A stretch of 64,000 nt of DNA from Tubulanus polymorphus. Lineage: Eukaryota; Animalia; Nemertea. Both the position numbers and the translations under genes were made by a program. The DNA is taken from NCBI RefSeq assembly GCF_964204645.1, contig NC_134028.1, forward strand, positions 15,259,653 through 15,323,652, given 5' to 3'. The notes below the pieces were generated by a model. That model did not search any database and was not told the DNA's origin. It saw only the letters and a list, made by a program, of their open reading frames with translations. This document shows positions 10,456-63,682 of this stretch, one piece after another (position 1 is the stretch's first letter; every line of letters begins with the position of its first letter).

Positions 10456-10914
10456 ATGCCAATTCTTGCTCGTGATCATTTGGCAGTTAAGCTGAGACAG
10501 AATTGGCTTGCCAGAACTCCTGCTGAAAGTAATAGCATAGCTGGAAACCTTGATGATAGCTTGACAAGCCTCAACTGGCTTCATAATCTAAACATTATGA
10601 AGATCGCAGTTCCTACTCCCCCCTCCAGTCCAATACCAAAAATCGAAGGTGCGCAGGATTACAATGTGAAAGTGAACCCTAACTCAATATTGAATATTGG
10701 AGTTCCTCTGTCTCAGGACACTGCTCCCTGTATGCCAATGTATGATAAGATAGATTACAAAACTAATCCCTATGTTAAGCCACCATATTCCTATGCTACT
10801 TTAATCTGTATGGCAATGAAGGAAACAAATAAGATGAAAATCACCTTGTCTGATATATATCACTGGATTACAGAGAACTACATGTACTATAGAATGGCTG
10901 ATCCAAGCTGGCAG
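10456..10914 (+). CDS. FOXJ1: Forkhead box protein J1, coding exon 1
   Basis: LDDSLTSLNWL motif and DYKTNPYVKPPYSYATLICMAM...ITLSDIYHWITENYMYYRMADPSWQ forkhead N-half. Upstream acceptor ttttcag; phase-0 donor CAG|gtaaga at 10914/10915. Confidence 0.93.
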
Positions 10915-13150: not shown

Positions 13151-14315
13151 CTAAGGGAGCATCTCAAAATTTCGAGTTGCTTCAATTTGAAAGACTCGCG
13201 GAAGTGAGTGGGGTGTTGAAGACGCCCGTGGATTGATCATGACTGATCATTGCTATAGGATCCAATCCCGGTCTCAAGTAGTTGGCACAGTTTTGACAGA
13301 AGCTGGAAATAATCGCAATTCAGATATAAATATTTTTATCTTATTTCATTTTGTTTATAAAGTCTATGGAACAGCCTAGATAAAACTTCCCATGTTGATG
13401 TGATTAAAAGCTGACTAATTATTTTGGTGCATCAACAATGCAAAAAAAAAACCGCGCTGAATGCGCGTCTCTCGCTGCAAAAATTGTCTTCTGCTCAGAC
13501 GCGTTTGTAGTTTTGATTGTGGTTTTGTGCATTTCATTGTGGGATGTATCTGGCCAACACAAATTGTTAATGCAAAAATAATTTATATGTAGTTGCGACT
13601 TTTAACACCCGTGTCTTGTACGTGCATTTAACCACGCCTGAAACTAAGTGCGCAACAAAGCTGCTTCTATGTGTAAAATAATCCTGAACCACGATTGACA
13701 TACGTTTTATGGGATGTTTTATCTAGGCTGTACTATATTAGAGTCTAATAGATTTTTCATGTAATTTTTCTATTTCATTTTCAATTAAAAGTTGTGATTA
13801 AAATACACTAGTGAGAACTTATCTTTATCTATGGTCTCTCATTAGAAAATCAAAAGTTCCTACTTGGGGACGTGTCTGATCAAAGGGTGGTCAGGGGGTA
13901 AGAAAGAATTAGACAGTTATACTGATTGACACAACTATTGAAATTTAGGATTTTGGGCATGGTGTCCCTAGACCCATTGTTTTAAGATCCTAACTTCATA
14001 ATACTTATGGAGCCTGTTGTTGGTGACCTTCCTTAGGTACAGTAAAACCCGCTTAATCCGGATAAGCTTAATCCAGATTTCTGTCCATTTGTAAATTGAT
14101 ATACAAGAAAATGACGTTTATTCTGAATATCCCATAAACCTCAAAATATCTCAATTTAGCGGGTTCTACTGCACATGCAATATTTCATTATCTAGGCAAA
14201 GTTAAAGTCCTAAACAAACACCTGTGTGAAGGTCTTTTTAGGGACCATCCATTTAGTACATACACAAAAATCTGCTGATGTATGAATTAATGAGGATTGT
14301 TTATTTCATTTTTAG

Positions 14316-15137
<822 letters not shown>

Positions 15138-24480: not shown

Positions 24481-24590
24481 CGGTGTTGTCATATCGCGGA
24501 ATCGCGGAATTTACAAAAAACAGAATTTCTTCATTTTCACTATATATAGTAACCGCGTTTTATAGCACCCTGAGATTTCCGCATCACAAG

Positions 24591-24680
24591 AGTAATTAGA
24601 AGATGGCGTTTTCAGATCAGAGTACGAGAGTACGAGACACCACTCATCACCACAAGTAATTTTTTTTCCTAATAAATGGG
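24591..24680 (+). repeat. Polinton left terminal inverted repeat
   Basis: agtaattagaagatggcg...cctaataaatggg is the exact reverse complement of 41665-41754. Confidence 0.97.
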
Positions 24681-25002
24681 AGATAGAAAAGCATTCTTAG
24701 CAACAATAAATAACAGAATAAAACCAGCAAAAAAACAATTTGAAATAAAAAAGTTAGTTGATGTTACAAAAGAAATTGAACATAAAATATTGAAATTAGA
24801 AAAGATAAAAACTAAATATGGAGAGAAAGTATCAGCTAATTTAAGCTACTGTAATGTTAGTACATCGCGAGAATTTAAAGTGTTTTTACCCGATAAATGG
24901 GTTTCATTGAGTACGGAGGAATTGAAAGATTTAGTAGGATTTAAAATAATATATCATGGGAAAAATGAAGACGGTCATCATGATTTAGAAATTGTTGATT
25001 AA
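24676..25002 (+). CDS. Polinton small hypothetical protein (108 aa), possibly OB-fold-like
   Basis: Intact ORF starting inside the TIR at TAAATG. Beta-rich pattern KIKTKYGEKVSANL...FKVFLP...IIYHG. Confidence 0.7.
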   Translation: MGDRKAFLATINNRIKPAKKQFEIKKLVDVTKEIEHKILKLEKIKTKYGEKVSANLSYCNVSTSREFKVFLPDKWVSLSTEELKDLVGFKIIYHGKNEDGHHDLEIVD

Positions 25003-25374
25003 ATAAGAAATAAAAATAATGAATATCTAGAATCCAAAATGACCTTAGTCGTTTTATAAACAACTACAATCATACAGTACATCTGTTACATATTATTATA
25101 AGAGAGTGCTTCATTTGAATATTGATCAATCAAACAGGTGTTGCACAACGTTGTTGTTATAATAAGCCCGTAGTACATACAACACACACAAACCAGTTAG
25201 CTGGTATTGAATTACTGCGTTTTCATTAGTTGCTGAAAACGAGGTTTATTTAAATTAGCTCGGCCGTGACGACAGGAGGATAGTCATCATTCTCTCGTGA
25301 TTAAAAGGAATATTTCAATGTTTTTACGGTAAGTTTTAGCAAAATTGCCCTATCCTCGACCTACAGAGTTTTCA

Positions 25375-25559
25375 GGGGATAAGCATCCCATTATTGAAAG
25401 GCGCCACGGGACGCTTATCCCCCGTCATTTCTACTTACACCCCCGGAGACCCACGTCAACCGGGATCTCCTTCAATGATTGGTAGAAATCACATTATATT
25501 AAAGGCGCCTAATGTAATTTCTACCAATCTCGAAATTCGAAACCGAAGGAGAAACCCGG
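25375..25559. ncRNA. Candidate structured non-coding RNA or DNA element of the Polinton
   Basis: 15-bp stem 25375-25389/25408-25422, 20-bp stem 25477-25496/25510-25529 and enclosing stem 25460-25473/25545-25559. Both loops contain AAAGGCGCC. Confidence 0.5.
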
Positions 25560-25974
25560 AGAGTGGACGAAGGTGCATTTTCAAAATGCCTCTGCTGGCC
25601 AGAGCTACTCCAGTGGTTGAATGAATTGCCTTATATACTTAGCTAAAACACCTAAGTAAATGTTGTTGGTGCTAAAAAAATATGTGAAATTTGAAATTAT
25701 AAATTATTCCGAATGAAAAGAATGTAAGAATGAAAACTGATAAGTGAATTATGTATTTTTAACTTAATTATGATATAATTTTTAATCAAATTAGTAATCA
25801 ATTACTATGTTAATTGATTAACAAATTCAAATATTCAAATAAAAACAAAATAAATTAATAAAAATAATGAATATCTAGAATCCGAAATGACTTATCTGGA
25901 CAATTTAATTGCTCCGCATAGATAGACAAAAGTAGTGAGATATTCAATTATTTTTTTGCTTTTTTTCTAAAATA

Positions 25975-26343
25975 TTAATCCATTTTTTTTATTATCAATT
26001 TTGGAATTTCAGAAGTATTTTCATTTTTGATAGCAGTTGTTTCAGAATTACTAATATCATGAATTTTATTTGATTTCTTATACCAATTACACCCAATCAA
26101 AATGAATACAATTACAAATCCAACTGTAAAATATAAATATTTATCAAATATTCTATTATCAGAAGGAGTAGAAATAACAATATTTTCACCATTTTTATTA
26201 ACATTTTTATTACTTATTTTTTCTTTTACAGCTTTTTTATATTCTTGTGATTTAATTCCTAATTGTCGAGACCATTCAATTTGTTTCTGAGTTCTCGGTT
26301 TTTTCTTCACAGTTAATTCCTTCACTTCTTTCACCTCGCTCAT
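25975..26343 (-). CDS. Polinton single-pass membrane protein (122 aa)
   Basis: TAAATG start, basic N-terminus, hydrophobic YLYFTVGFVIVFILIGCNWY. Homolog at 63308-63676. Confidence 0.8.
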   Translation of the reverse strand: MSEVKEVKELTVKKKPRTQKQIEWSRQLGIKSQEYKKAVKEKISNKNVNKNGENIVISTPSDNRIFDKYLYFTVGFVIVFILIGCNWYKKSNKIHDISNSETTAIKNENTSEIPKLIIKKMD

Positions 26344-26881
26344 TTATTATAGAAATATTTTTACTTTCAATATTTGAAAATGTTATAACCCCAGTTGATA
26401 ATAATGTCATAAATCCACCTAATTGAAATGATAAATATCCAATCCATTTATTTAATTCAGTCATAACTAAATAGTCATTTTTTAAATCGGAATATAATCT
26501 ATTTTCATTTTCAATTGGTAGTATATAATTACATAATTTACTATAACCTTTTACTACATTTTCTGATATCGCGTCATTAATTCTAGCTGTTCTCGCGGCT
26601 TCATAAATCTTAAATAATCTAATAATTTCATCTGATTTCATTGTATCTAATTCATTATAAGTTAAATTTTTACCGACAAAATTTTTACATTTTCCAGATG
26701 CTATTAATATTTCTAATTGATGTTTACAGAAAAGATAATATTCATAATTATTATTTGTTGTAACATTATTTAAAGCACCATCATCTGGAGTTAATTTTGT
26801 TTCTGTTATTCCTAAATCATCTAAAGTTTTTTCAATTGAAACATCACCATTTTTAGATTTTATTTTCTTTTCACCTCCCAT
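26276..26881 (-). CDS. Polinton conserved hypothetical protein (201 aa)
   Basis: TAAATG start. Clear homolog at 62710-63315 sharing IEKTLDDLGI, YEYYL.CKH and LYSDLKNDYLVMTEL. Confidence 0.85.
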   Translation of the reverse strand: MGGEKKIKSKNGDVSIEKTLDDLGITETKLTPDDGALNNVTTNNNYEYYLFCKHQLEILIASGKCKNFVGKNLTYNELDTMKSDEIIRLFKIYEAARTARINDAISENVVKGYSKLCNYILPIENENRLYSDLKNDYLVMTELNKWIGYLSFQLGGFMTLLSTGVITFSNIESKNISIINERGERSEGINCEEKTENSETN

Positions 26882-26912
26882 TTATATAACAAAAAAATTA
26901 ATTGTGTGATGT

Positions 26913-27132
26913 TGCAACTAGAATTTAACTAGAATTCAACTAGATTAACAAGCTAGTTGAAATATTGTTAAATCTAGTTGATTTTTGTTTCAACTACTAA
27001 CAACTAGAATTCAACTATAATGTAACTATAATTAAAATAGATTAACAAGCTAGTTAAAATATTGTTAAATCTATTTGATTTTTGTTACAACTACCAATAA
27101 CTAGAATTCAACTAGATTAACAAACTAATTGA
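26913..27132. repeat. Intergenic AACTAG/CTAGTT-rich degenerate repeat
   Basis: About two copies of a ~110-bp unit (agattaacaagctagtt.aaatattgttaaatcta.ttgatttttgtt) plus many caactagaatt motifs. Confidence 0.75.
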
Positions 27133-27150
27133 ATTTAAATAAATTCATAT

Positions 27151-27741
27151 TTAAATGGGTGTTGTAATAAATAGTAATTTTGATCTTTTAATATTTTTCA
27201 ACTCATCCATATATTCATTATGTAAATCATGTGGAATAATATCATTTTCCTCAAGTGCATTTTTCATCGATTTTCTATCTTTATTGTAGAATAAAACTAG
27301 AAATCTAATGTTTTCTCTAAAGTCTTTAACAATTGAATTATATTTTTGATTTAAAACCCAAGTTGTTATCCCAAAATGTCTCCCAGAGAAAGCTAAATAG
27401 CATAATTCACTTTCTCTAACTTTTGAATCATGTAAATTTGCACAATCATCTATGATAAATAATGTATTTGATCCTTTATAAATATCAATTGCTATTTTTA
27501 TACAATTATCTAAATTTTCTTTTACTGTTTTAGGATCTAATATAATAAATTTATTATTTCTAGTAATATTTCTATCATAAGTTTGATTAAATTCATATGT
27601 TGGACAAAATAATACTATATTATCAAAATAGTTTTTGTAAATAGTTTCTAATAAATTTAATATAAAATAAGTTTTTCCACAATTTGTTACACCAGAAATT
27701 AACATATTATGAGGCTCAAATATGAATAATTCCTTATTCAT
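27151..27741 (-). CDS. A32/FtsK-like genome packaging ATPase
   Basis: Walker A ISGVTNCGKT, Walker B LFIIDDC, and A32-type GRHFGITTWVLNQKY...REN. Confidence 0.92.
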   Translation of the reverse strand: MNKELFIFEPHNMLISGVTNCGKTYFILNLLETIYKNYFDNIVLFCPTYEFNQTYDRNITRNNKFIILDPKTVKENLDNCIKIAIDIYKGSNTLFIIDDCANLHDSKVRESELCYLAFSGRHFGITTWVLNQKYNSIVKDFRENIRFLVLFYNKDRKSMKNALEENDIIPHDLHNEYMDELKNIKRSKLLFITTPI

Positions 27742-28869
27742 TTATATATTTTTAATTTTACTTGATAATATCCATTCATTAAATTTATCTGGCCATCCAA
27801 CCCATTTTACTAAAGAATATTTTTTTCTTTTAATAGTTTTTGTTTTTAATACTTTTTCAATTTTATATTCTTGTTCTAGATTTTCAGTAGTTAAACTTAA
27901 TTCTTCTTCGTAAAAGTAACCATCAACTTCTTCACCATCTAAATCTTCTAATTTATAGACATATGGTTTTGTTGTTATTACCTTTTTTATTTTATATATT
28001 TCCCTAGTAAAATTTCGATCGTATCCTTTGTCAAATATCTTTTTATACTTAGATATTCTAACATTTTGACCAACTTTAAATTTAGGTTCACCAAAATCAT
28101 CTACAAGAAATGCTCCATATAAATTATTCCAAACAATTTCAGCATTTTCAGGTTTTCTAGCATCAATAGGTTTCATTCCAATAGAAGAATGATAAGAATT
28201 ATTATATCCTTCTATCAATTTTGGTAAAACATCAATCCATTTAAAAGTATTATTTGCTGTAAAATATTTCCACATTCTTGTTCTTAATGTTCTATTAAAT
28301 CGTTCAACAACTGCTGCTTTTTTATCTGATTTTGTTGAAAAATATTTAATATTATGATTATCTAAGAGTTCATGAACAAGTGAATTATCAAATTCTTTTC
28401 CATCATCAAATTGTATTTTTTCTGGTTTTAGTTTATCATCCGAAAGAAATTTTCTTAAAACATTTGATGTTTGTACAGCATCTTTTCTATAAAGTGGGAA
28501 GCTCCATACATAACGACTAAAAATATCAATTATATTCAATAACCACCAATAATCATCATTATCTTTCTTAACATTTTTCATATCAATTAAATCTCCTTGC
28601 CACTGTTGATCTACATAACTTACCATAGTTTTACGAGTTTTATATTTTCTAACAATTTTTTTATGTGTTGTATATGTTGGTTGTTCTAACATAAATTCAT
28701 TTATATCTTTATATTTAACTAAATTTTGTGGGATTATCTTATCTAATTTATCTTGTTTTACTTTACGCCATATATTTTTAGTAGAAGAATAAGCAACCGA
28801 ACTCTCAGGGTTGTAATATAAATTTCTTAAATATTGTTCTTTAGTATTAGGAGTTTTTTTACCACTCAT
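27742..28869 (-). CDS. Retroviral-like (RVE) integrase with C-terminal chromodomain
   Basis: DDE triad in WQGDLIDM / QFDDGKEF / VVERFNRTL. C-terminal YKIEKVL...LVKWVGWPDKFNEWI chromodomain. Confidence 0.95.
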   Translation of the reverse strand: MSGKKTPNTKEQYLRNLYYNPESSVAYSSTKNIWRKVKQDKLDKIIPQNLVKYKDINEFMLEQPTYTTHKKIVRKYKTRKTMVSYVDQQWQGDLIDMKNVKKDNDDYWWLLNIIDIFSRYVWSFPLYRKDAVQTSNVLRKFLSDDKLKPEKIQFDDGKEFDNSLVHELLDNHNIKYFSTKSDKKAAVVERFNRTLRTRMWKYFTANNTFKWIDVLPKLIEGYNNSYHSSIGMKPIDARKPENAEIVWNNLYGAFLVDDFGEPKFKVGQNVRISKYKKIFDKGYDRNFTREIYKIKKVITTKPYVYKLEDLDGEEVDGYFYEEELSLTTENLEQEYKIEKVLKTKTIKRKKYSLVKWVGWPDKFNEWILSSKIKNI

Positions 28870-28899
28870 TTATATATCCTTAATTTTAACTTTATATTT

Positions 28900-30147
28900 C
28901 TAATATTGAATACTATCTAATTGTGAATTTACAATATTTAATTGTGCGTCAGATATAATATAAATGTGCATTTTAAAATTTTTGATTCCTTTATTCTTTT
29001 TCATGAATAATTGTATTCCATCTTTAGTGTTCTGTAGTTTTTTTCCAGAACCATGTAATGAATTATCTTCTGTTGTTCTAAAATCTAACCATAATGCATA
29101 TTTATTACCGGTATAATAATCAATTTGATTAATATTACAATTTTCAAATGATTTTACTTTTTCATTCATAAAATGTTTTCTAATTTCTGGCCATTGATCA
29201 ATCATTCTCATTCCTTGACAAAATATTTTATTCGCTATTCCTTCAATTGTTATTTCTACTTTTGTTATTTCAGGATTATAATAATTATCAACATTTATTG
29301 CACCATTAGAATATGTTGCAATAGTAAAAAATATTAATATACCTTTAATAGATCTTCTTGGGAAAATAATATTCTCATTAATTATTTCATCATTTGCATT
29401 GATAGTTACAGTTTTAAATTTATCAATATAATCATATAATAATGAAAATCCTTGATTGTATTGAGTTTGAATTGTGCTAGCAATATTTTCATTAGTTACT
29501 GTGTTATATTCTAAACATATATTCGATAATTTATAACCCATATCTTTAACAACGCTAGATAATACAATTTAATTTACAGGAGCAAATGTTATCTCAAATA
29601 TAATATCTTCTTGAATTGCGTATTTATATAAAGGTGCATTATTATTTATCAATTCAAAGTCTAATGGAATTTTATATTTGCTTCCATAAATCTTTTTAAT
29701 CAAATTATCTACACCATTATTTACTACTGCGTTATTGGCTTCAGATCTTAATTTATTTTGGTTTTCTGATTGAATTCCTTGAAATATCATATTATTTCTA
29801 TTTTCTTTAGTTAACCATAAATCTTTATAATGTGAAAATAAATTATAATCATCTAATGAGAAAACTGTTTCTGGACCAATCTTTATTGTTAACTTTTTAA
29901 TCAAATATCTTCCAACATTATCAACAACATAATTATTATTATTACCGATTACTTTTATATCGGCTGATAAATAAATACTGTTTGGAACATAAAAAGTATT
30001 TTGTGTTAATTGAGGGATTCTAACGTATAAAGTTTCATCGGGATTAATATTTGAAGGGTTATGAGTAATTATATGATGTGATCTTTCTGCTTTAATAGCA
30101 TTAGATATTCTATGATTCTTCGAAGGACTTATATAACTCCCACTCAT
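28900..30147 (-). pseudogene. Major capsid protein (double jelly-roll) with one in-frame stop
   Basis: The 192-aa and 213-aa ORFs are in the same frame, separated by TAA (29569-29571) and 9 sense codons. About 415 aa, beta-rich, with the size and position expected for a Polinton MCP. Confidence 0.75.
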
Positions 30148-30187
30148 TTATTTAACAAAAAAATTAATTATTTATTTTTTATCATGT

Positions 30188-31617
30188 TTACTTGATATTT
30201 TTTGATATCATATTCACTAACCCAAAAATAATAGCACTTACAACTGTAATTAAAAATAAAATAATATGTTCAGCAGCAAAGTTAATAATGTTTCAGATTT
30301 CAATATAAAACCAACAATTGAAGCAATAATTCCTGGCAATGCTGCAGCAGATTTTTTAGATAGTTCCCATAAATATTTTGCTAATTTTTTTAAAAAACCA
30401 TCCTTAACTTTATCTTGTATAGAATTATTTCCTGGAGGTTTATCTGGTTTATTTGGAGTAGATTTCAAAGCATTTGATATTGCTAAACCAATTGTTGTAA
30501 ATAACATAGTTACAGCTGTTAGAATTGAAAGAATTGTTATTCCTTCTAATTTAAATAATAACTTCATCCTGTCTTTTAATGATATTTCAGAATTTGGTTT
30601 AATCAACAAATCTTTAAAAATAACTTTTAATCTATTAATATTATAATCATATGATTTTAATAATAATTTAATTTCTTCTTTCTGTACTTCTAAATTATCT
30701 TTTAAATTACTAATTTCTTTTTCTAAACGTAATTCTTTTTGCCTATATTCTATTTCATCAATTACTTGATGATCTAAATCAGACTTTAATTGTTCTATTT
30801 CTTTATTTTTATCAGTTAATTCTTTTTCCAAATACATAATTTTTTGATCTCTTATACTTTTATTATGTGCAATTTTATCAGATGCAAGTCTTATACTAAT
30901 AATTTCTCTAATTGCTTTATCAGAAAATATATCTAAATCTTCTAATTCTTGATCTGTTGCATCAAATAATCCATTCGGTAAAAGTTTTTCAATTGGAACT
31001 TTATTTGATCTAAGTTTACTATTTTTGGAAGTTATATTCTGTTCAGAAGTTGTTTCTGTTTCTGATTTCTTTTTGATTATTTCAAATAATTCATTAATTC
31101 TTTGTTTAAATACATCTATATTATCATCTATTTCTTTTTGTGTAACATCAGTTATTTCATTACTATTACTTATTATTTTAATTCTATCTGGTTTTAATTT
31201 TTCTAAAGTTGATTCTGATAATATTTTATTTTTATTATTTTTATAAGTGATATCAATATAATAATCACCTTTCAAACGATAATAACATTTACCATTATCT
31301 AAAAATTTCAATTGATCTGCTAAAAGTCCAACGTCTTCATCATTTATGTTAAAATTAGATTTTTCAATTAAATCTTCTAATTTAGGTATTTTGTTTAAAT
31401 TATCTAAATCTTGTTTTACTAAATCTGGGTCTAAATTTTCAGGATTTAATTGTGATTCAGCATTTTTAATATAATCAGGCATATTCAAATTATTATTATA
31501 TTCTGGCTCATTACCATCATTAAAACTTGTTTCATCAAAATCAGGTGGTTGTTCATCAGTTATGTTAGGTTCATCAAAAGGATCCATTCCAATATCTTCT
31601 CCACCTTCTACATCCAT
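30188..31617 (-). CDS. Coiled-coil membrane protein (~475 aa, probable frameshift near 30290)
   Basis: Acidic N-terminus, long heptad region, hydrophobic GITILSILTAVTMLFTTIGLAI and AAALPGIIASIVGFIL. An alternative frame continues NIINFAAEHIILFLITVVSAIIFGLV to a stop at 30188. Confidence 0.7.
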
Positions 31618-31633
31618 TTATATAATAAAAAAA

Positions 31634-32962
31634 TTAAAATTTAAAATATAATATTCCTCCTATAACAATTCCTATACAAGTTATAGCTAATTTAGTATTT
31701 TCATGGAATTTATTATCATCATTTAGTTTAATTACATCATGTTGAATTTTATCGGTTTTAATATCACCATGTGGGTGCCGTACGGCATCATTTTCTGATG
31801 TATTGTAATCTTTTATTTTAGAATCATTATTTAATTTAATATTCTTAATTTTAGTTTCAGTTGATTGAATGTGTTTTTTATTTTTTTCACCTTCCATTAA
31901 TTTTGGAGCAGTAATAAACTTTTTATTTATATCATTTAATCCAAATGAATTATTTATTGTTGCAGTTTTAATTAGATTATTATAACCAATTATACTACCC
32001 ATTTTTAATATTAAATCATTAGAAATAATTAATAGATTAGGGCCTATACAATAATTAAGTCTTACATGAGATTTATCTAAATAATTTTGATATCTTATAA
32101 TGTTTTCTGGAATCGATCTATTTTTATCATTATGAATTGAATCTTCAAATAAAACTTTAAACTGTTTCTGCGCATCGAATGAAGTGTTATCATTTCCAAT
32201 TATTTGGGATCTTGTTTCAACTTGAGCGCCTAAAATACATATCAAATAAATTCTAATAGATTGATTTATTCTTTGTATACCTGATTTTGTAAAACCTTCA
32301 CCATTTTCTAAAATGAAATTAACCCAACCATTATTATTATCAATTTTATAATTATGATAAGCTCCAATTCTATGCATATAATCAATTCTTTTTATTTCAT
32401 ACTGTTCACCAACACCTTGCAATTTACCATGCGCTCTGAAATCGGAATTAATATTTATATTAAATTCATTACATATTTTATAAAACTTGGATATATTAAT
32501 ATTATTATCCAATTCTTTAAAATATTTAGACCCGGGTAAAGGACATTCTAATTCATTTAATATTATTCTGATTTGAAAATATGTGTGAAATCTAAATATT
32601 GTGTGAATTAATTTTAAATCAGAATACTTCAAATTTTTATCTAAGTTATTTAAATGATCATTCCAACTTATTTCACATCCTGTTGTTGCACAATAAACAG
32701 CAAAATTTAATTGATTCTGCCAATATTTCATATTAGATTTTACTTTATACATATGATATTCATCTCGAGTAAAAGTAACTTCATATGTATTAAATATATT
32801 TTCCATTTTAGAAATAAAAAACTGTGATTCAGTAACATAAATTTCTAAATTAGTTAATGAATTTAAAACTATATTTTTATATGTAATATTTTTCTTAAAA
32901 TCTATTGCCGGAATATTATATTTAATTGATTTATTATATTGGAAAGCTTTTGGAAACCCCAT
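31634..32962 (-). CDS. Polinton hypothetical protein with C-terminal membrane anchor (442 aa)
   Basis: Long ORF with TAAATG start and C-terminal LAITCIGIVIGGILYFKF. Confidence 0.8.
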   Translation of the reverse strand: MGFPKAFQYNKSIKYNIPAIDFKKNITYKNIVLNSLTNLEIYVTESQFFISKMENIFNTYEVTFTRDEYHMYKVKSNMKYWQNQLNFAVYCATTGCEISWNDHLNNLDKNLKYSDLKLIHTIFRFHTYFQIRIILNELECPLPGSKYFKELDNNINISKFYKICNEFNININSDFRAHGKLQGVGEQYEIKRIDYMHRIGAYHNYKIDNNNGWVNFILENGEGFTKSGIQRINQSIRIYLICILGAQVETRSQIIGNDNTSFDAQKQFKVLFEDSIHNDKNRSIPENIIRYQNYLDKSHVRLNYCIGPNLLIISNDLILKMGSIIGYNNLIKTATINNSFGLNDINKKFITAPKLMEGEKNKKHIQSTETKIKNIKLNNDSKIKDYNTSENDAVRHPHGDIKTDKIQHDVIKLNDDNKFHENTKLAITCIGIVIGGILYFKF

Positions 32963-32978
32963 TTATATAACTAAAAAA

Positions 32979-33413
32979 TTAATAATTTATTAATTCTTTT
33001 AATAATTTATCTTGTTCTTCAACTGTTATATGGCCATTTAAACTTATTATATAATCTAGTGTGTTCTTTAATTTATTAATTTCTTTTATATTAGTTTTAA
33101 TTTTTTCTTTATTACTTTTTATATTTAATTTTGAACTTATACCGGTTAAAACACTTGAACTTAATCCTAATACACCAATTGATATAGCTAAAGGTGTTAA
33201 TGGGCTGAATATTGCTAAAAATGTTATTACAGAACTAATCGTAACCGAACCACTTATAATCAAATAATATATAATTTTACTTTTTAAATATTTTTTCTTT
33301 TTTATCTTTAAGTCACTTTCAAATTCTAATATTTGTTTTTCTAAATATATTTTTAATTTAGTTTTATTTATATCATGAGGAATAATATCAATACTATCAA
33401 CTTTATCTTCCAT
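32979..33413 (-). CDS. Two-TM hairpin membrane protein (144 aa)
   Basis: TAAATG start. Central hydrophobic stretch flanked by basic coiled-coil segments. Confidence 0.78.
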   Translation of the reverse strand: MEDKVDSIDIIPHDINKTKLKIYLEKQILEFESDLKIKKKKYLKSKIIYYLIISGSVTISSVITFLAIFSPLTPLAISIGVLGLSSSVLTGISSKLNIKSNKEKIKTNIKEINKLKNTLDYIISLNGHITVEEQDKLLKELINY

Positions 33414-33432
33414 TTATTTAGAATAAAAATTA

Positions 33433-33855
33433 CTAATTAGTAAACTTATAAGCAACAAATATAACAATAACTGTTCCACCTAAAATCCATATTATTTCAT
33501 ATTTCTGTTGTTCTTTACTTGGGGTATAATAATCTGATAATTTAGGTTTGTATAGATGTAATTTTTCTTTATTTGTTACTGCGTTATATAAACTCATTGC
33601 ATCATCAACTGATTGAAAATCTCTATGTGAAATCTTCTGATCATATAATTCTTTATTGATGTAATCCATATAGTTTTGCCTCTTTTCTCTATATTCTTCT
33701 GCAGCTTTATTGTATTTCTCTAACGCTAAGTTATGTCTTCTTTGTTCTCCTAATGAACTATTTTTATCAATATGTTTAAATAAATAACCACCACCAGTAA
33801 ATGCTAAAGCGTTAACAATTGCTGATCCTATAATAGTTATAATTGCAGAAGCCAT
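33433..33855 (-). CDS. Membrane-associated protein (140 aa)
   Basis: TAAATG start, hydrophobic N-terminus MASAIITIIGSAIVNALAFTGG and C-terminal IIWILGGTVIVIFVAY. Confidence 0.8.
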   Translation of the reverse strand: MASAIITIIGSAIVNALAFTGGGYLFKHIDKNSSLGEQRRHNLALEKYNKAAEEYREKRQNYMDYINKELYDQKISHRDFQSVDDAMSLYNAVTNKEKLHLYKPKLSDYYTPSKEQQKYEIIWILGGTVIVIFVAYKFTN

Positions 33856-33880
33856 TTATTTAGCAAAAAAAATTATGCAT

Positions 33881-34096
33881 TTATATGGGAGGAATATATT
33901 TTTGTTTTTCTAAATAATCAATAGTTAAATTAGATAAAGTAACTGCTAATGTTAATTTTAGAATATCATTGATATCAAATCTATCAACATTTCCCATTTT
34001 GAATACTTTTTTTAATACCATTGAATAACCAACAGTTCCAACTGATAGTAATGCTCCATTATATAATCCAGTTATTATCCACTTATTATCACTCAT
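33881..34096 (-). CDS. Small hydrophobic protein (71 aa)
   Basis: TAAATG start. A related copy at 58354-58500 conserves the frame. Confidence 0.78.
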   Translation of the reverse strand: MSDNKWIITGLYNGALLSVGTVGYSMVLKKVFKMGNVDRFDINDILKLTLAVTLSNLTIDYLEKQKYIPPI

Positions 34097-34456
34097 TTAT
34101 TTATCAAAAAAATTACTATCATCAAAATATTTAGTTATCTTAGTGATTATTAATTCAACATTTATTTTATTACTAGTTTTATGATTATCATATATTTTGG
34201 ATAATATGTTTTTAATATCATCGATGATAAAATCTTCATCTAATTCATAAAATCTTAAAGATTCTCTAATTAAATTAGTAATCTTTTCTACATTTAAAGT
34301 TTCTTTATCAATTGTTGTTTCATACTCAAATGTTGTTTCATAAGAAAATGCAATATTTTTGATATGTGTAATTACATCATTAATATTAAATTTCATTTCT
34401 TTCTCACGTTTAAAATCAAACCCAAAACATATACTCGGTCCAACAGTTATATTCAT
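34097..34456 (-). CDS. Polinton hypothetical protein (119 aa)
   Basis: TAAATG start; its stop abuts the next ATG. Confidence 0.7.
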   Translation of the reverse strand: MNITVGPSICFGFDFKREKEMKFNINDVITHIKNIAFSYETTFEYETTIDKETLNVEKITNLIRESLRFYELDEDFIIDDIKNILSKIYDNHKTSNKINVELIITKITKYFDDSNFFDK

Positions 34457-34472
34457 TTATATAGGTGAAAAA

Positions 34473-35225
34473 TTACTCTTTACATCTTATAACTAATTCA
34501 TAAATTACAGGAAAGTTATTCAAATCAATTAAGTATCCATTATGATTTCTTATTTCTAATTTAAAATTATTAAATTGAGGAATACAAGGTTTGAAATCAC
34601 ATTCAGCTAAATTATAATTTATTTGCGTTCCAAATTCTTTAACATTCTTCAATGGTAAAATGTTTAGTAAACCAGAATTACAAGTTATATCTTTAGTTGC
34701 TTCGAATGTTTTTGTAGGATCAATTAAATTGCAATAAATATAAAAATGTGTAAAAGGCATTAAGTTTGATTTACCTTCTGCGTATGCTGTAACAATATCT
34801 GGGTTAATTCCTAACAGTTTACCTAAAGGTTTTCTTACTGTAAATTTAAATTGTTCGTCTAACCTAATCTTTATTTTATTAGAACTAGCACTTTTTAAAA
34901 TTCTAATATTAAATCCAGAATCACTTCCTAATTTAGCTCGAGCTTTTCTATTAATTTCTTGTGCTAATGTATTTAAATTATATAATCCTGGTTTTAAATA
35001 TATAAAAAACCATTTATTCCTTTTTTTATAAAAGATTGAAAAAATTAAATGTTCAAGACTTTTATCCGTTACATTGTAAAAAGAATTACATAAACTTATA
35101 TTTACTAATTTTAAATCAACGCAATTCTTAAATTCTCTATCTAATTGTACTAATAAATTATGAGATTTATAATTTGTAAGTTTTCTAGAATCAACAAATA
35201 TTCTGTATTCTTTTAATTCTACCAT
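34473..35225 (-). CDS. Minor capsid protein (penton, single jelly-roll)
   Basis: Pattern IFVDSR...NSFYNV...PGLYNL..L...IN...LLGI...YIYCNLI...KLEIRNHNGYLIDLN..PVIYELVI, typical of Polinton/NCLDV pentons. Confidence 0.8.
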   Translation of the reverse strand: MVELKEYRIFVDSRKLTNYKSHNLLVQLDREFKNCVDLKLVNISLCNSFYNVTDKSLEHLIFSIFYKKRNKWFFIYLKPGLYNLNTLAQEINRKARAKLGSDSGFNIRILKSASSNKIKIRLDEQFKFTVRKPLGKLLGINPDIVTAYAEGKSNLMPFTHFYIYCNLIDPTKTFEATKDITCNSGLLNILPLKNVKEFGTQINYNLAECDFKPCIPQFNNFKLEIRNHNGYLIDLNNFPVIYELVIRCKE

Positions 35226-35293
35226 TATTTATAACATAAAAAAATTACCGCTCATCACTAAAAATTAATTTTAATAAAATTTTTCCTTAATAA

Positions 35294-36610
35294 ATGGATG
35301 AGACGATAGCATGCGAAATTTGTGGTGAACTTCTAAGAAAAAGTAATATGGCTCGACATATGAAAAAACATGATGAAAATTATAAACCCCCTAAAATAAA
35401 CTGTCCAAATTGTAATAAAACATTCTCTAGAAATTATTTCAAAAAACATTCAGAGAAGTGTAAAAATAATAACTTAATAGTTAATGTTGACAGTAACGAA
35501 AGTAATAATAATTCTGTTGAAGTTGAACCTGAAATTATTTGGAAAAGACCTTTCTTATTCTATGATAAGGATAATATAAAAGATCATTTCTGTGAGCCTT
35601 GTCGAATAAAATATAACCCTGAAAATATAGAAGATTGGGAGAATCATCAATTTCGTAAAGTACATATAGATAAAATTTCTAATAAATTTGAAACTGAATT
35701 CAATGCAAGAAAAAATAATTTATTAGAAAAAATAAAATATGAGAAAACGTTACCAGATAATGAAGAAACAGTTGAAAAGTTAGAAAAACAATATAATGAA
35801 TTAACAAGAAAAACATATTATTGTAAATATTGTAAATTGATTATTACAACAAGTAATTCAAATCTACATAATAGAACAATAAAACATAAAGAAAACGTAA
35901 GAAAATACCAAGAGCTTAATGAAGATCTATTACCAGTAAATTATAAACAAAAATGCCCACAATGTATTTATGCGACCTTAAGGCAAGAAGGTACTGTGTT
36001 ATTTTGTGTTGATTGTGGATGGCAAAGGAATTTATGGGGTGAAGAAAAAACTAGAAATTTTCTTATAGAACCAAAATTAAATTATCTTGATGAAATTTTT
36101 AAAATATTTTCTATAGAAGATCATACACCAGAATATATGCAATGGCTTGAAAAAATGAAAATAATAGAAAATAAAAATGGTGAAATAACTAAAAAAGATA
36201 TTATAAAAACAATTATTCCACCAACATTTAACACAAAACAAAAGAAAATGTATTTATATTTATTATTTAACGATTATTATGAAAAACCTAAATTAACAGA
36301 AGAAGATATGGAAAATATAAAAAAAATATTTAAACAAATATTAATATATCATTTGGAAAATAGAATAACAGATTCAATAAATTATGAATTCTTTTTAAAT
36401 AAGATTGTAAATTATTTAAACCTAGATATTATAATTCCATTTGATGAATTAACAAACAAAAAGAAACAAAGAGTGCGAGATGAAATGTGGAACAAGATAG
36501 AAATTTATTTAAATGAGAAAAATGGAATGGAAGAAGAACCTGAACAATTAAATGAAAATGAAGAAGCTAATAGTGATTTCGAGTATGATGATATTGATTT
36601 TATGTTTTAA
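35294..36610 (+). CDS. Zinc-finger protein with C-terminal VLTF3-like (poxvirus A2 / NCLDV late transcription factor 3) domain
   Basis: Four N-terminal C2H2/C2HC fingers and a CPQC..CVDC ribbon, then PKLTEEDMENIKKIFKQI...SINYEFFLNKIVNYLNLD...LTNKKKQRVRDEMWNKI, matching the VLTF3 C-terminal pattern as I recall it. Confidence 0.72.
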   Translation: MDETIACEICGELLRKSNMARHMKKHDENYKPPKINCPNCNKTFSRNYFKKHSEKCKNNNLIVNVDSNESNNNSVEVEPEIIWKRPFLFYDKDNIKDHFCEPCRIKYNPENIEDWENHQFRKVHIDKISNKFETEFNARKNNLLEKIKYEKTLPDNEETVEKLEKQYNELTRKTYYCKYCKLIITTSNSNLHNRTIKHKENVRKYQELNEDLLPVNYKQKCPQCIYATLRQEGTVLFCVDCGWQRNLWGEEKTRNFLIEPKLNYLDEIFKIFSIEDHTPEYMQWLEKMKIIENKNGEITKKDIIKTIIPPTFNTKQKKMYLYLLFNDYYEKPKLTEEDMENIKKIFKQILIYHLENRITDSINYEFFLNKIVNYLNLDIIIPFDELTNKKKQRVRDEMWNKIEIYLNEKNGMEEEPEQLNENEEANSDFEYDDIDFMF

Positions 36611-39600
36611 TGGCTATAAGGTAATGTTTTTATACCATCATCTGAAATATGCCTTTTATCATCAAATGGATTTAAACTAGTTTTTTCAACTTCATTAATG
36701 TACATCTCATGATCTTCTGATCTTAAACAATTCATTTTGTGTTTCATTACAATTGATTTATATAAACACTTTATATAATCTTGAAATTCTATATGTTTAT
36801 CAACCACATGTTTTGTTATTCCTTTTAACTTTTTAGCTTCATGATCTTTTGTTCTGTAACTATACATTTTACTTCTTATCCCAACAAATTCAATCATTTC
36901 ATCACCCCCTAATTCATCTTTAAATTTACCAGGAATCTTTTTATTATCATTGCTAAACAATTCATGATCTTTGGGGTAATTGCTAAAATCAAAATAATGT
37001 TTTAATGTTTTTAAGTCTTTTGTTATATTATTTGTCTTGATTTTTAGTATGTAGGCGTCAGTATTGACCGCTATTAATGGAAATCCACAGTTAAATGTAC
37101 CATCTTCAGTTGATAAATCATAAACATAATCTGTTGGGTTATATATTTCAAATAAATCCTTAACTTCTTCTGTTAACTCATTTTCTACATGGCTTAAATT
37201 AAAGCAATTTGGTTTAGATTTAATCAATCCAATATTCATATTAAATCCTAATGAAGTGCATAATATATTCAATCCTGATATAGCAACTTTTCCTTTTTGA
37301 GCTAAAGATATTGTTTTGCGGTTTTGGAAACTTTTTGAACCATCTGCTGCATAGAATCCAATGAAGAACCATTTTCTTAAATTATTTTTTGCATTTAATA
37401 CATAATCTGGAACTATCTTTTCTTTTGTTGAAGTATTACTTTTCACTATTGCATGAATATAGAATTCGTTATTATATTTTATAGCAAAATCTTTAGGATT
37501 ATTCACATGTATTCTATAACATTGTGATGATTTCATAACATCTATGATTTTGAATGTTTTATGTGAATAAACTTCTTCACAGAATTTCTTAATTCTTTCT
37601 AATAATTTTTAAGTCTTGATTGCATAAATACCAACAATATTTAGTTCCACTAACATAATTATACACACCTGCTGAACCATCACCCATGAAAAATCCTTTG
37701 ATAAAATATTCTTTTTCTTCCAATGTTTCGGGTTCTATATTATAAATATTATCAATTATTTCATCAAATGATATATGATTCATTCTTAGGAAAAATCTTT
37801 TATGTAATAATTCATCTCCAATTTTTATATCAGTTGGTTTTATTTCATTACCATTTTGTTTAATCAAACTATGGTCTTCAGTAATATCAACAAATCCTAA
37901 TTTAGTTCTAACTCTATAGATTTTCTTATTCGTTTTATGTCTAATTATATTCTTTAATTTTGTCCATCCATTTCTTGTCCAAACATCCATTAAACCATTT
38001 ATTTGTATTAATTCTTTTTCTCCATATGAAATATAACATTCATTTTGTTTTGGAATTATTTCTGAAATTCTTCTTATCAATATTTTATCATTACATTTTA
38101 ATAATATTGGGGTGTCTGCTGTAACAGAATCAAAGTATAGAATTTCTATATTCTTTTCCCCAAAATGAGGTTGTAATACATTATAATAGAATTCATACAT
38201 TAGTAATTTTGATAATTCTAAAACAGTCGAACCAATAAATATAGGTTTATTGAATTTAATAGACGTTCTTTTTAATTTTACCGCGGTTAAATAATCCTCA
38301 AATCTTTTATTTCCTAAATGTCTAGGACTTGATTGTAGGTGTCTCAATCGTTCAGAATTATTTACTAATTCAATATCATTTCTATTTCTAATATTTTCAC
38401 ATGTTTTACCATAAAAACTATTATTCATTAATTTGAAGAAATCTTTTTCAAAATCTGTTTTTGATATGGTTCTCTGTTGAGTATTGAAATCTATATATTT
38501 TTCTAACCACTTTGATTGATTAAATTCAATATATCTATGTACTTTCTTTAATTTCATTCCTTGTTTTAGATAAAATTTTAACATTCTATAATGAACAATA
38601 TAATTGTATTTATTATTTTGAGTAAGTATTAATTTTTCTGTAAAAACATGATCTTTCGGTTTTATTTTCTTCTGGTATTCACTTAAATAACTATCATCTA
38701 CAGTTAAATGTTCTGGGCAATAAGGTAAGTTTCTTGTTTTAAACTTTATATTTTCAGGATATTCTAAATCAACTACAAAGAAATAACCAATTGGTGCTTC
38801 ATCTTTTAAACTAATAATTGCGCTTTCCCAATCAGTTTTATCACCATTTTCAACTTCTGTTAATATAAAATTTTTATATGGTTGAGGTTGCATCATTGCC
38901 CAACCATATAAATTATTGGCGTCAATATATAATAATTTATATTCATCATTTGCTTTAAAATACCTATCTCCCATAACACCACTAATTCCACCTCTAATTG
39001 ATTTTTCAAATAATAAAACCATATCTGGTTCTTTTAATAAATCTAATTCTACATTTGTATATTTTAAACCACATTGCCAGGTTAAACCAGGACTAGAATA
39101 ACAATAACAAGGATCAACATTAAAATGATTCAAATTAACTTCTCTAAATTTTTCAAATATGTCAGCCAATATCATAACATCTGATTTTAAATATAAATCA
39201 ACTAATTCACCATGATTTTTCATCTTAAAATGGTTCCAAATATTTAATGTTCTATTAAACACTTCATCTTTCACATACTCCTCTTTTAATTGATCATAAA
39301 ATTGATCTTTTAATAATTCTGTTACATTAAAATCATCATGTGTTTTATAAAATGAATAAGGAATTGCGCCTTTATATCTCAATAATTTAAAATCTTGTTC
39401 ATTTGGATAATAATATCGAGTTATAACAAAATCATTATCAACTAAACTTTTTGATAAATTATCTAATGAACTTGCTAGAAATCTATAAGAATCTAAAAAT
39501 CTAATGCAACCAAATTGAAATGAAATATAATTTTCAGATGTTTTAGCTAATAGTTTAAAATCATATTTTCTTACATTTATACCATTCATAGCATTATATT

Positions 39601-41669
39601 CTTCTATTTCTTGATTAATTGCGCCCAATTTTCCCGATAATTGTTTTATAAATAGATGGGTATCATAGCCTGATAAATTATGAAATAATATTGGTACGAA
39701 ATTAACTTTCTTAGCTTGTAAATTGCAATCTTCATGAGCAGCTCCACGATATTTTGAATTCAAATGATCATGATCTCTAACTCTTTTATCAAATGAATAA
39801 AAACGTTTTTCACAATAACAACAATGAGTTGCATAATTAAAATCAATTTCATCTTCTTTTGTCATAACTATTCTTTTATTTTTGTTTAATAATTTTGTAA
39901 AATCACTTTCTAATTCAATCACAACAAAAATCATTAACTACATTTTCACCTCTAAAAGAAATATATTGACTTTCATATAATTCGGGATAATTTGATTTGA
40001 TGTAAATTCCATAAGCAGCAGCTCTTTGATGAACTTTTTTAATTGTATTTATAATTGGTGGGTCTTGTATTGCGTCTTCATTTAATTCATTTCCTTTATC
40101 CATTGATTTTAATAATTGCTTTTTGTTATATATTTCTTTTCTATCTTGATCAGTTAATTCTTTATTCAACGATTCAAAATCCCCATAAATTACAAATGGA
40201 ACAATATTTTTAAATTTATGATTAGTAAATTTCAATTTATAATCTTTTTCTGTTGGCATTATTAATTTACAAAAATCTTTATTATCACATAATTCTTTAT
40301 GTTTTAATAATGTATTCTCAGTTCTAAATTTAGATAAACATTTTCTACATAGATAAATTTTATGGCTGTTAAAATCACTTTCTGTTCTAAAGAATAAATC
40401 AATTTGATTTAACCACATATAATGTTCATTTTCATCTTTTTTGTAATATAACAAATCTATAGCATTTTCATCATCATAATATTCTGTTAAATATAAAGCT
40501 TCCAATGTATAATCTTTAATATTTTCACCTTTTGTCTTTGGTAATTGCATTAATTCGAATACATTTATTTTTAAATTATTAATTTTTTCGATTTTAGGAA
40601 TCATTTTTATAGTTACTGGATATTGATCAATTTTATATAATGTTTCATATTTCCGATAATCTGTTATTCTACAAACATTTTCCTGTGTTGGATGTAAGCA
40701 ACTAATAATTGACCATAGAAAACATTTGTTGTCTTCATTTTGAACATTTATTACTGCTTTTGTTGTAAACGGTAATTTGATATAACTTGATGCTTTCATA
40801 TCTTTTTCTGTTATAAAGTTTGAATCATTTTTAAACATTTTATTACTTTTTGATGTTTTATTTCTTTTTGTATTATAAACATTTAAATCTAAATATATAA
40901 TTTCATTCAATGTTAAGCCAGAACCCTCAAAATATCTTTCTTCAATATGACGTTTAAATTCATTTAATATTTTTTCTAACTTCTCTTTTATTTGTGTTTT
41001 TGAAATTATTTCTTCAGAGTGTGTTTGAATATTATAATTCATTTTTTCTTCTGACTTTATAAAACTTACTTTCCCAGAGATACTAATTTTTGGATATTCA
41101 ACATCTGTTATCAAATCTAGTAATTTTTCTATTATTTCATTAAATTTACTATAATCTTCTATTGTTGTACCTTTAAAGAATCTAAATATAATAGCTGCAG
41201 GACCAATTTTACTATGTAATGTTTCTAAGATTTCAATTGTATCTTTTATTTCTAGTGAATCAATATAATTTCTAACATTTTCCATGTAAGGTTTATTTGA
41301 AATGGATTTAGTTTTTGAAGTTGGTTTTTTTACTTTTTGAGTTTTATCGTCAAAATAATCTTTTCTTAAAACATTATTACTCAAATTTTGGTGGTGTTTT
41401 TGTGATTCGAGATGTCTATTATAATTCCTTTTTACTATAAATTCATTACAAACTTCACATTTTATTTCATCCACATTCATATTTTCTAATCGTTCTTTTC
41501 TTTCATTGGAATTTTCTGGAGTTTCAAAATCTATAACATTTTTTATATGATTTGAAGATTTTTCATGTTTAGATTTATTAGATTTATCGATGTATTTTTT
41601 ACAATATTGACAATAATATTGATTTTTATTGACATTATTGTTTTCTAGTTGGTGTTCATTCTCCCCCAT
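36607..41669 (-). pseudogene. Protein-primed family B DNA polymerase with intein and two frameshifts
   Basis: Exo I YGDFES, Exo II FHNLSGYD, Exo III YLKSDV, Pol A YIDANNLYG, Pol B KLMNNSFYGK, Pol C YFD/TDA, GKFKDE and RSKMY. EndoVII-like CCYC..DHDH..CN insert. Frameshifts at ~39925 and ~37607. Confidence 0.95.
37063..38128 (-). mobile_element. Intein with LAGLIDADG homing endonuclease (~355 aa) in PolB motif C
   Basis: Block A SVTADTPI, block B VDITEDHSL, LAGLIDADG motifs FIKGFFMGDG and FFIGFYAADG, block F YVYDLST, terminal Asn followed by +1 Thr. Removal restores YFDTDA. Confidence 0.92.
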
Positions 41670-41754
41670 TTATTAGGAAAAAAAATTACTTGTGGTGATG
41701 AGTGGTGTCTCGTACTCTCGTACTCTGATCTGAAAACGCCATCTTCTAATTACT
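41665..41754 (-). repeat. Polinton right terminal inverted repeat
   Basis: Exact reverse complement of 24591-24680. Confidence 0.97.
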
Positions 41755-42920
41755 CACAAGCACAGGCTAACTACGTTAAAAATCCTTAAGTCGACGATCA
41801 GGAACCAACGACGAGAAAACGTTCCTAAAACTTCAAACCGTAAATTTCACTTTATTTTCTTCGATATATCGGAGAGACGAGGCTGGACATCCAACCCGCT
41901 CAAAAGCTACAACTCGAATCTTTGATTTCTTTCAACAAATTTTCAACCAGGATACTATTACATAAGACACCAAGGGTGGCAGAGACCAGAAGGCAGTTAT
42001 CGAAACAATACACACTGACTGACACTTCAAGTACATTTCTAAAACAAACAAACAGTCTGACACTCCAAAACTGACTGACACCCTGCCCCCTTAGTAACAT
42101 CAATGAAAATAAGACGATATTTGTAAAATAAGAAATAGAAATCATAAACAAGACATAAAAATGCTCTGTTAATTTAGACTAAATTTAGTTAAATATCTAC
42201 GCTGTGATAGTTTTCCCGTGGGGATACCCACTGCCGGACATGGCACCGGACCGATCGATGCACTGAGTTATGTTCGAATCCCATTATTTGCAGGCTATTT
42301 CATCGGAAATTATGCGATTCCGTTGACTGGCTGCAACCTACAGCAGCAGCCAGAATCAAGTAGGAAGAAGAGATCACCTGGGCGAAGTTCGGTTATCGAA
42401 GTTAGTCGACTTTTTGCGAACTTCAGAACGAATATTATCAGTTGAATTTGAGCACCGTTCGACCTGGCCGTAGTTCGTGGTTCCAAACTTGGGGTCCTAG
42501 GACCAAACAAGTACCGATTTAGTAACAATATGATTTTTATTTGATTCAAATAATCAGCAACAAATATGTAATAGCTGTCATTAAGAAAACCAGCGGCATC
42601 TAAAAAAACGAAACCATTTTATAATCTCTAATATCATTTCATTTCGTAAACTTTCCCAGGTAAACTACTGATTTACCACCGATTTTATTTGATTCGTTCA
42701 GTATAGTACACTGCGATACTGTGCATCACAGATTAAGTTGTTGACTGGCGATATAATGAATTATCACATACTGGTACCCGTTTATGAAAACATCTGTCCG
42801 ATGCCTTGTCCGACAGTAGGTATCCCCACAGGAAAACCCGGTTACGATTTATAGTGAAAATGAAGAAATTCCGTGTTTTTGAAAAATTCCGCGACTCCGT
42901 TCCTCGATATGACAACACTG

Positions 42921-43126
42921 CAGATTATGATTCAATATTTTCTGATATATTCTCGGCCCATGCCGATTAATAACAGGGCGATTTTACGGCTGTTGGGTGC
43001 AGTTCCTTTTTCAGTTGCCACGAGATAATTTTCAAACTCACATTCAAAATCTCTCCATTCCCCGATTAAATTGTTACATGCGAGCCTCTGTGGGCTAAAC
43101 TTCGGCGGGGACAACTTTTCCATCAC
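42921..43126 (-). pseudogene. Ty3/Gypsy gag remnant, 5' part
   Basis: NLIGEWRDFECEFENYLVATE...RKIALLLIGMGRE is a typical gypsy gag N-terminus and joins 24480 across the TSD. Confidence 0.8.
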
Positions 43127-43139
43127 GACAGGCTTGAAA

Positions 43140-43431
43140 CTTCTGACACCATGTTATGTTTGTCCCGATGCATAATGATTTAAACTCAAGCCGACCAAAA
43201 GAATAGAACGGCAACCATTGATATCTTGTATCAATCTACAAAATTTATTTTCGCCAGATGGCGACACCACACAGTACAGAGTATTCATGAGGTGAACAAT
43301 GACCAGTATGTATGGTGACTAAGTAAACTGTAATTTATTTCTCTACTCAAAACAGCATATTCATGCGGGGCTTACATAGGCTGGGTTAGATGTACTGAGG
43401 GGAGTACGTTACTGGCAACTGTCAGACAACA
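43140..43431 (-). mobile_element. Primer-binding site and probable 5' LTR of the Gypsy element
   Basis: Minus strand reads ...CATAACA|TGGTGTCAGAAG (LTR end plus tRNA-complementary PBS). AATAAA lies within. The outer TG boundary near 43431 is tentative. Confidence 0.6.
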
Positions 43432-58350: not shown

Positions 58351-58353
58351 TCG

Positions 58354-63676: not shown

Positions 63677-63682
63677 AATAAG

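Follow-up and report, generated by a model that had tools for sequence, protein, structure and literature searches.

The window analysed here is a 64,000-nucleotide stretch of the genome of the nemertean Tubulanus polymorphus (contig NC_134028.1), and positions given without a locus name refer to it. It contains an endogenous Polinton of about 17 kb at 24591-41754 in which nearly every gene starts at a motif resembling that of vaccinia late promoters. The boundaries of this element are exact: terminal inverted repeats of 93 bp with a single mismatch are flanked at both ends by a 6-bp target duplication, CACAAG. Eighteen open reading frames (ORFs) make up 15 genes (Table 1). The GC content is 24.0%, compared with 36.9% and 38.1% in the flanks, in agreement with the extreme AT richness described in an earlier note on this DNA. 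The host sequence is that of a eukaryote with spliced genes, as illustrated by a forkhead gene of two exons at 10420-15137, which we take to be FoxJ1.

Table 1. Features of the Polinton, in window coordinates; aa, amino acids
Feature	Position	Strand	Remarks
Left target-site duplication	24585..24590	.	CACAAG
Left terminal inverted repeat, 93 bp	24591..24683	+	Contains T8-N5-TAAATG, promoter-like, opening the 108-aa gene
108-aa conserved gene	24676..25002	+	74% to L003
122-aa conserved gene, hydrophobic segment	25975..26343	-	TAAATG start without T-run
201-aa core gene	26276..26881	-	Family of 27 ORFs in loci plus window
Two tandem copies, ~97 bp each	26915..27114	.	Non-coding spacer
A32-like packaging ATPase, 196 aa	27151..27741	-	Pox_A32 E 1.6e-13; TAAATG uses integrase stop codon
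rve integrase, chromodomain at C-terminus	27742..28869	-	rve E 2.5e-10; Chromo E 8e-4
Major capsid protein gene	28900..30147	-	Double jelly-roll inferred; interrupted by in-frame stop
455-aa conserved coiled-coil/hydrophobic protein	30250..31617	-	
442-aa conserved core gene, invariant Cys/His residues	31634..32962	-	
SLATT-like two-helix membrane protein	32979..33413	-	SLATT_4 E 3.4e-5, below cut-off
140-aa core gene, N-terminus amphipathic	33433..33855	-	Family of 27 ORFs
71-aa hydrophobic protein gene	33881..34096	-	
119-aa ORF	34097..34456	-	No homologues among loci
250-aa conserved gene, candidate minor capsid protein	34473..35225	-	DUF5901 E 4e-4; PDB 8h2i P1v1 E 0.16; start TAAATA-ATG
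Zinc fingers and C-terminal VLTF3 (poxvirus A2L-like) domain	35294..36610	+	VLTF3 domain at 35930-36529
Protein-primed family B DNA polymerase	36607..41669	-	DNA_pol_B_2 E 1.9e-19; N-terminal zinc fingers; endonuclease VII-like insertion; three frames
Intein with LAGLIDADG-like endonuclease	37063..38128	-	Inside polymerase; one frame break crosses intein
Right terminal inverted repeat	41662..41754	-	Promoter-like motif opens polymerase gene
Right target-site duplication	41755..41760	.	CACAAG

The earlier note described the element as complete, which holds for its ends only; the copy in the window is integrated and its genes are broken. A stop codon at 29569-29571 interrupts the capsid frame, and the coding sequence of the polymerase is spread over three frames with breaks near 39920-39937 and 37590-37608. 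The ATPase is shorter than those of its closest relatives (196 vs 204 aa), and the product of the 30250-31617 gene, at 455 aa, falls about 30 aa short of the 485-aa homologue in L003, the closest syntenic relative. Copy number was estimated from raw reads of another whole-genome sequencing run carrying the same species label, at 90% likeness over 36600-44600. At the polymerase breaks these reads mostly differ from the window copy, so the breaks belong to that copy or to its assembly. Read depth over most of the polymerase was ~200-350 against ~7-11 in the three lowest flank bins, a roughly 30-fold excess, and 258 reads run out across the right end of the element into poorly agreeing sequence, a sign of many insertion sites. 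The Polinton family is multi-copy, with about 30 related copies across many sites.

TAAATG opens 14 of the 15 genes, which bears out the earlier statement that it stands at nearly every start, and the fifteenth gene begins at TAAATA-ATG. Elsewhere in the element TAA precedes 35 of 649 ATGs (5.4%; binomial P ~1e-17). A run of at least four T residues lies 5-8 bp upstream of the motif in 11 of the 15 genes, and the full pattern of T-run, 5-8 bp spacer and TAAATG occurs 12 times in the 17-kb element compared with once in 43 kb of flank. Both terminal repeats hold the motif, the right one serving the polymerase gene and the left one the 108-aa gene. The vaccinia late promoter, as described in a review (PMC5294985), has the same T-containing core, a 5-7 bp spacer and TAAAT(G/A) overlapping the start site; the element motif matches this layout, suggesting that it functions as a promoter. 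Unlike vaccinia, the element carries the motif at all gene classes including polymerase and integrase, as would be expected if a satellite followed a late programme. A further difference from vaccinia is that three genes, those of the integrase (28869), the ATPase (27741) and the 122-aa protein (26343), have an A-rich core instead of the T-run and may represent a second promoter class. TTTTTNT, the poxvirus early terminator, was also considered as a poxvirus signal; it occurs 10 times in coding regions against 21.5 expected, but A-runs and T-runs are depleted likewise, so its scarcity is non-specific.

The motif was then followed through relatives of the element. A capsid profile recovered 80 metagenomic loci, whereas scans of viral_contigs with proteins or alignments of the element found no relative. 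A capsid tree was built from 40 loci, nine database proteins and the window, using a quick IQ-TREE run with midpoint rooting and support only from the Shimodaira-Hasegawa-like approximate likelihood ratio test (SH-aLRT). Starts were counted in 38 loci, at the first ATG of those ORFs of at least 90 aa that had a homologue elsewhere among the loci. The count excluded four near-duplicates and any locus lacking a long capsid ORF. TAAATG was found at 43 of 51 starts in the clade of the window (12 loci, GC 20-44%) and at 19 of 21 in a second clade (4 loci, GC 34-39%). Six loci of mixed placement gave 8/26, and the sister clade gave none (0/87; 16 loci, GC 26-55%). When loci were matched for GC, the counts were 37/42 against 0/29 in the sister clade. 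A T occupies position -12 in 57 of the 62 motif starts of relatives, and TAA is the stop codon of the upstream ORF in 3 of the 62. The motif tracks the capsid tree and not GC; it is thus inherited, bipartite and independent of base composition. Loci with the motif differ in polymerase family (L043 and L060 compared with the window), and the motif therefore goes with the capsid module. Several relatives also carry back-to-back CATTTA...TAAATG arrangements in which divergent start codons lie only ~20-40 bp apart. Among loci without the motif, a TATA sequence lies within 16 bp of the start in 7/12 (L019), 3/3 (L024) and 4/4 (L025) cases, against a background of 4-17%; these starts resemble the late initiator of African swine fever virus (ASFV) and may form a second helper-tuned class.

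The 438-aa protein that carries the VLTF3 domain matched no Pfam family as a whole, and a whole-protein homologue search missed VLTF3 too. Residues 213-412 pass the cut-off of Pox_VLTF3 (PF04947; 27.2 vs 25 bits, E 3.6e-6). A fold predicted from the single sequence was unusable (predicted local distance difference test, pLDDT, 45). A model from a 16-row alignment reached pLDDT 82 and matched cowpox VLTF3 with a template modelling (TM) score of 0.65 and E 2e-5, although the alignment included poxvirus rows, entomopoxviruses among them. Six fold matches in BFVD had E <=0.001: one unnamed, cowpox, two entomopoxviruses, a Megaviridae VLTF3 and a moumouvirus protein. The VLTF3-like gene of the earlier note thus stands, and the failure of this match in profile or structure searches, which that note had named as one part of a refutation, did not occur. 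Searching the domain against 1.84 billion protein representatives gave four matches. Three are relatives of the element, two of them with the same zinc-finger N-terminus. The remaining match, a protein of 226 aa and of A2L type, has 60-63% identity to betaentomopoxvirus VLTF-3. By sequence similarity, the nearest identifiable VLTF3 homologue is of entomopoxvirus type, with a caveat of amino acid composition that is weighed below. In the 81 loci searched with a VLTF3 profile, the gene was found only in L019/L020 and L081, all of them in the profile or next to it; the homologue in L003 is truncated by the contig end. Since the window domain scores 17-37 bits against pox-type proteins and below 4 bits against the short VLTF3s of L019 type, two separate captures of VLTF3 in the capsid lineage are suggested. 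The short VLTF3 of L019 lies at 6543-7049 of that locus and is of a different type from that of the window.

The remaining genes place the element among Polintons. The capsid has 104 homologues, mostly of 414-430 aa; it was not matched directly by the Polinton double jelly-roll (DJR) Pfam model, while 12 of 26 aligned members matched Capsid_N weakly and its Atlas neighbours carry Capsid_N or DJR-like domains, from which we infer a double jelly-roll fold. A profile of the 26 capsid sequences found no match to the solved mavirus and Sputnik capsids. The 250-aa gene probably encodes a minor capsid protein, given its weak DUF5901 and PDB similarities. Profile and fold searches of the PDB gave nothing significant for VLTF3, the capsid, the 442-aa family or the candidate minor capsid protein. 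No cysteine protease match was found in the 18 window ORFs, 43 further ORFs or the 442-aa family, a result that would not reveal a very divergent protease. Virophage (Virophaviricetes) membership, with neither a virophage-type capsid match nor a protease match, was rejected. The 442-aa family matched no known family in profile searches, and its gene, conserved across the lineage, is a candidate stand-in for the missing protease. The 108-aa product is a candidate single-stranded-DNA-binding protein, a guess from resemblance. The closest syntenic relative also carries a deoxynucleoside kinase gene (L003:10343-10981; dNK E 1.7e-31), which is unusual for a Polinton.

The polymerase contains an insertion of 1,066 nt that splits the Y-F-D / T-D motif and is absent from two aligned relatives. 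Giant-virus polymerases carry inteins at this same motif. The N-terminal block of the insertion passes TIGR01445 (29 vs 24.5) and its end is a terminal Asn followed by Thr, which confirms the PolB intein of the earlier note; the LAGLIDADG match is weak (E 0.002). No homologue of the intein was found in the 81 loci, and its read depth of 115-260, below the rest of the polymerase and far above single copy, indicates that it is common in the Polinton family. Homing-endonuclease insertions in Polinton polymerases are known and have been ascribed to intein invasions (PMC11071308).

Several known systems resemble the element in part. With the Mavericks or Polintons (Polintoviricetes), including adintoviruses (PMC8502044) and the groups 1 and 2 of 10.64898/2026.06.19.733378, it shares the protein-primed polymerase (pPolB), rve integrase, A32 ATPase and major capsid protein, as well as terminal inverted repeats, a 6-bp duplication, a length of 17 kb and an animal host. 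The swapping of replication modules described for group 2 in that preprint is also seen in relatives of the element (helicase type of L039). Unlike group 1 Mavericks and adintoviruses, the element has no detected adenain-type cysteine protease, and unlike known Polintons it has a poxvirus-late-like motif at nearly every gene and an intein with a homing endonuclease. Coral polintoviruses (Stephens et al. 2024, PMC11131425) are, in their published main text, likewise endogenous animal polintoviruses with VLTF3, and the words 'promoter' and 'helper' do not occur in that text. The polinton-like viruses (PLVs) found in entomopoxvirus occlusion bodies (Barth et al. 2024, PMC11296320) are put forward as hyperparasites of poxviruses in animals, with one relative integrated in a beetle genome. 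They differ, by a comparison of descriptions only, in being ~12 kb long, in having a protease and no rve integrase, and in having been found physically with a poxvirus; the main text of that paper contains none of 'promoter', 'TAAAT', 'VLTF' or 'intein'. Both PLVs associated with poxviruses and VLTF3 genes in polintons have therefore been published before. Poxvirus-type promoters in Polintons did not come up in the literature searched, which covered few subscription papers and no supplements.

Another such system is the mavirus provirophage of Cafeteria (10.1101/068312), which has pPolB and rve, integrates, carries one helper-type late motif before its genes, and shares the late promoter of Cafeteria roenbergensis virus (CroV), remaining silent until CroV infection. 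It differs in its virophage capsid and protease, its protist host and the TCTA motif of CroV, and its helper dependence and protection are experimental where the element is known from sequence. With one helper-type late motif on every gene class, the mavirus pattern is the simplest account of the element. We lean, though not strongly, towards the reading that this Polinton lineage is adapted to poxvirus-type late transcription, probably as a satellite using the RNA polymerase of a co-infecting poxvirus-type cytoplasmic virus.

Poxvirus late mRNAs carry a poly(A) leader made by slippage. If the motif is a promoter, transcription of the element would start in the AAA of TAAATG with no templated 5' untranslated region, and slippage would add a similar leader. 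As has been proposed for mavirus, the provirus or a newly arrived genome would be activated by late factors of the helper. Replication and packaging would follow in the factory of the helper, carried out by the polymerase, ATPase and capsid proteins of the element itself, and the integrase would bring copies back into the chromosome. The VLTF3 of the element may bias or compete for the late machinery of the helper, as an accessory and not as the cause of the motif. The broken window copy could participate only through complementation in trans.

The earlier note had likewise proposed a satellite of a poxvirus-like or giant virus, on the grounds that several independent traits converged. The layout of the motif supports that proposal. 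No helper was found, and nothing was seen to indicate the inducible antiviral defence that the note also suggested. The promoter argument is stronger than first presented because the motif is bipartite and lineage-specific, does not follow GC and rarely takes its TAA from an upstream stop. The other traits carry little weight. The 18 window ORFs gave no Pfam match to an RNA polymerase, as the note had stated, and we know of no Polinton described with one. The Polinton gene lists in 10.64898/2026.06.19.733378 and PMC4642659 also include none. Neither the lack of an RNA polymerase nor AT richness was kept as a hallmark: they do not discriminate, and AT richness and the motif do not go together. 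Nor does VLTF3 by itself demonstrate a helper, since both coral polintoviruses (PMC11131425) and mriyaviruses carry it, and the latter lack an RNA polymerase and are inferred to be nuclear (PMC11253617).

Other observations count against a poxvirus-type helper or reduce the force of the evidence for one. Within a clade the motif starts, being those of related genes, cannot be counted as independent, and the tree comes from a quick analysis. Relatives without the motif also have closely spaced divergent starts (42-46 bp). The pox-like ranking of the VLTF3 domain is confounded, because K, N, I, Y and F make up a large share of both proteins (44% and 51-54%), and the entomopoxvirus rows in the folding alignment bear in the same way on the structural match. 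In L081, the only stretch of an entomopoxvirus that was examined, TAAATG stands at 8 of 19 starts but the T-run core is lacking, and L081 is therefore not a matching helper type. A literature search for poxvirus-like viruses of marine invertebrates gave nothing relevant.

Alternatively, the element may be autonomous in the nucleus, where host RNA polymerase II, steered by host factors and the VLTF3 of the element, would read a compact core promoter specific to the lineage, either convergent on a poxvirus-like sequence or derived from one by inheritance. We consider this less probable, though deserving of serious weight. Some 30 germ-line copies at many sites are simpler to explain for an element mobile in the nucleus unaided, the chromodomain of the integrase fits a nuclear life, and mriyaviruses retain VLTF3 without an RNA polymerase and are inferred to be nuclear. 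Against this reading, the 12-kb partial contigs L033 and L043 have the motif at 10 of 11 conserved starts with no VLTF3 found, and L019, at 49% GC, has VLTF3 and no motif start (0/12). The motif is moreover fixed on the start codon, so that a templated leader would have no space should the motif be the initiator, and the spacing within the motif is that of the vaccinia late layout.

Dependence on a different cytoplasmic large DNA virus, for example an asfarvirus-, egovirus- or mimivirus-like one with a late promoter of TAAATG and T-run, seems improbable to us. The fold search also returned VLTF3s of Megaviridae, Tetraselmis virus and pandoraviruses (E 2e-4 to 2e-3), no pox-like virus turned up here for this host, and the late promoters of many lineages are undescribed (PMC6401483). 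Against this, the late motifs that have been described are different (TATA-type in ASFV, TCTA in CroV), and none of the four sequence matches was recognised as a giant-virus VLTF3. It is very improbable that the motif is only a translation signal, be it an A-rich start context that includes an in-frame stop or a coupling of stop and start, in a compact genome rich in AT. In favour of this, TAA is the stop of the upstream gene in 2 of 14 window genes, and the starts of AT-rich relatives in the sister clade are A-rich. Against it, coupling covers just 3/62 cases in relatives, the AT-rich sister loci score 0/29, the conserved T at -12 with its freer spacer is unlike a start-codon context, and the terminal repeat holds the motif with no gene upstream.

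Returning to a poxvirus-type helper, a bolder version can be put forward as a conjecture that we think rather unlikely to hold in full. All Polintons of the animal and sediment clade might be provirophages that lie silent in germ lines until activated by the late machinery of their helper, a poxvirus-type virus of aquatic invertebrates yet to be discovered; with a captured poxvirus VLTF3 they would divert that machinery, and they would limit the spread of the helper. The sister clades with TATA starts (L019, L024, L025) would then match different helpers, asfarvirus-like viruses for instance. If so, large animal viruses not yet seen could be predicted from the start motifs of Polintons. The reading with a poxvirus-type helper, if right, would itself carry the provirophage lifestyle into animal germ lines and point to unsampled poxvirus-like viruses of invertebrates. 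At stake is whether animal Polintons, almost none of which have been seen replicating, sustain themselves in the nucleus or parasitise larger viruses, and a sharp, clade-specific motif of poxvirus type makes the question of a helper testable.

Further traces of the family and of other insertions were observed within and around the element. A non-coding part of the element at ~25.0-25.9 kb has a higher GC content and a 35-bp direct repeat at its borders, and may be a later insertion. In the right flank, fragments with OTU and DUF6570 similarity at 56070-58048 look Helitron-derived, in our assessment. They are followed at 58351-58535 by a piece 90% identical to 33845-34024 of the element that includes two TAAATG motifs. 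A decayed second relative occupies 60403-64000 in the opposite orientation and continues past the window edge. It starts with an inverted repeat with 127-nt arms, carries TAAATG at 60903 and 62707, and has three genes homologous to those of the element, for the 201-aa protein (66%), the 122-aa protein and the integrase. CACAAG also precedes this relative, which may hint at a target preference.

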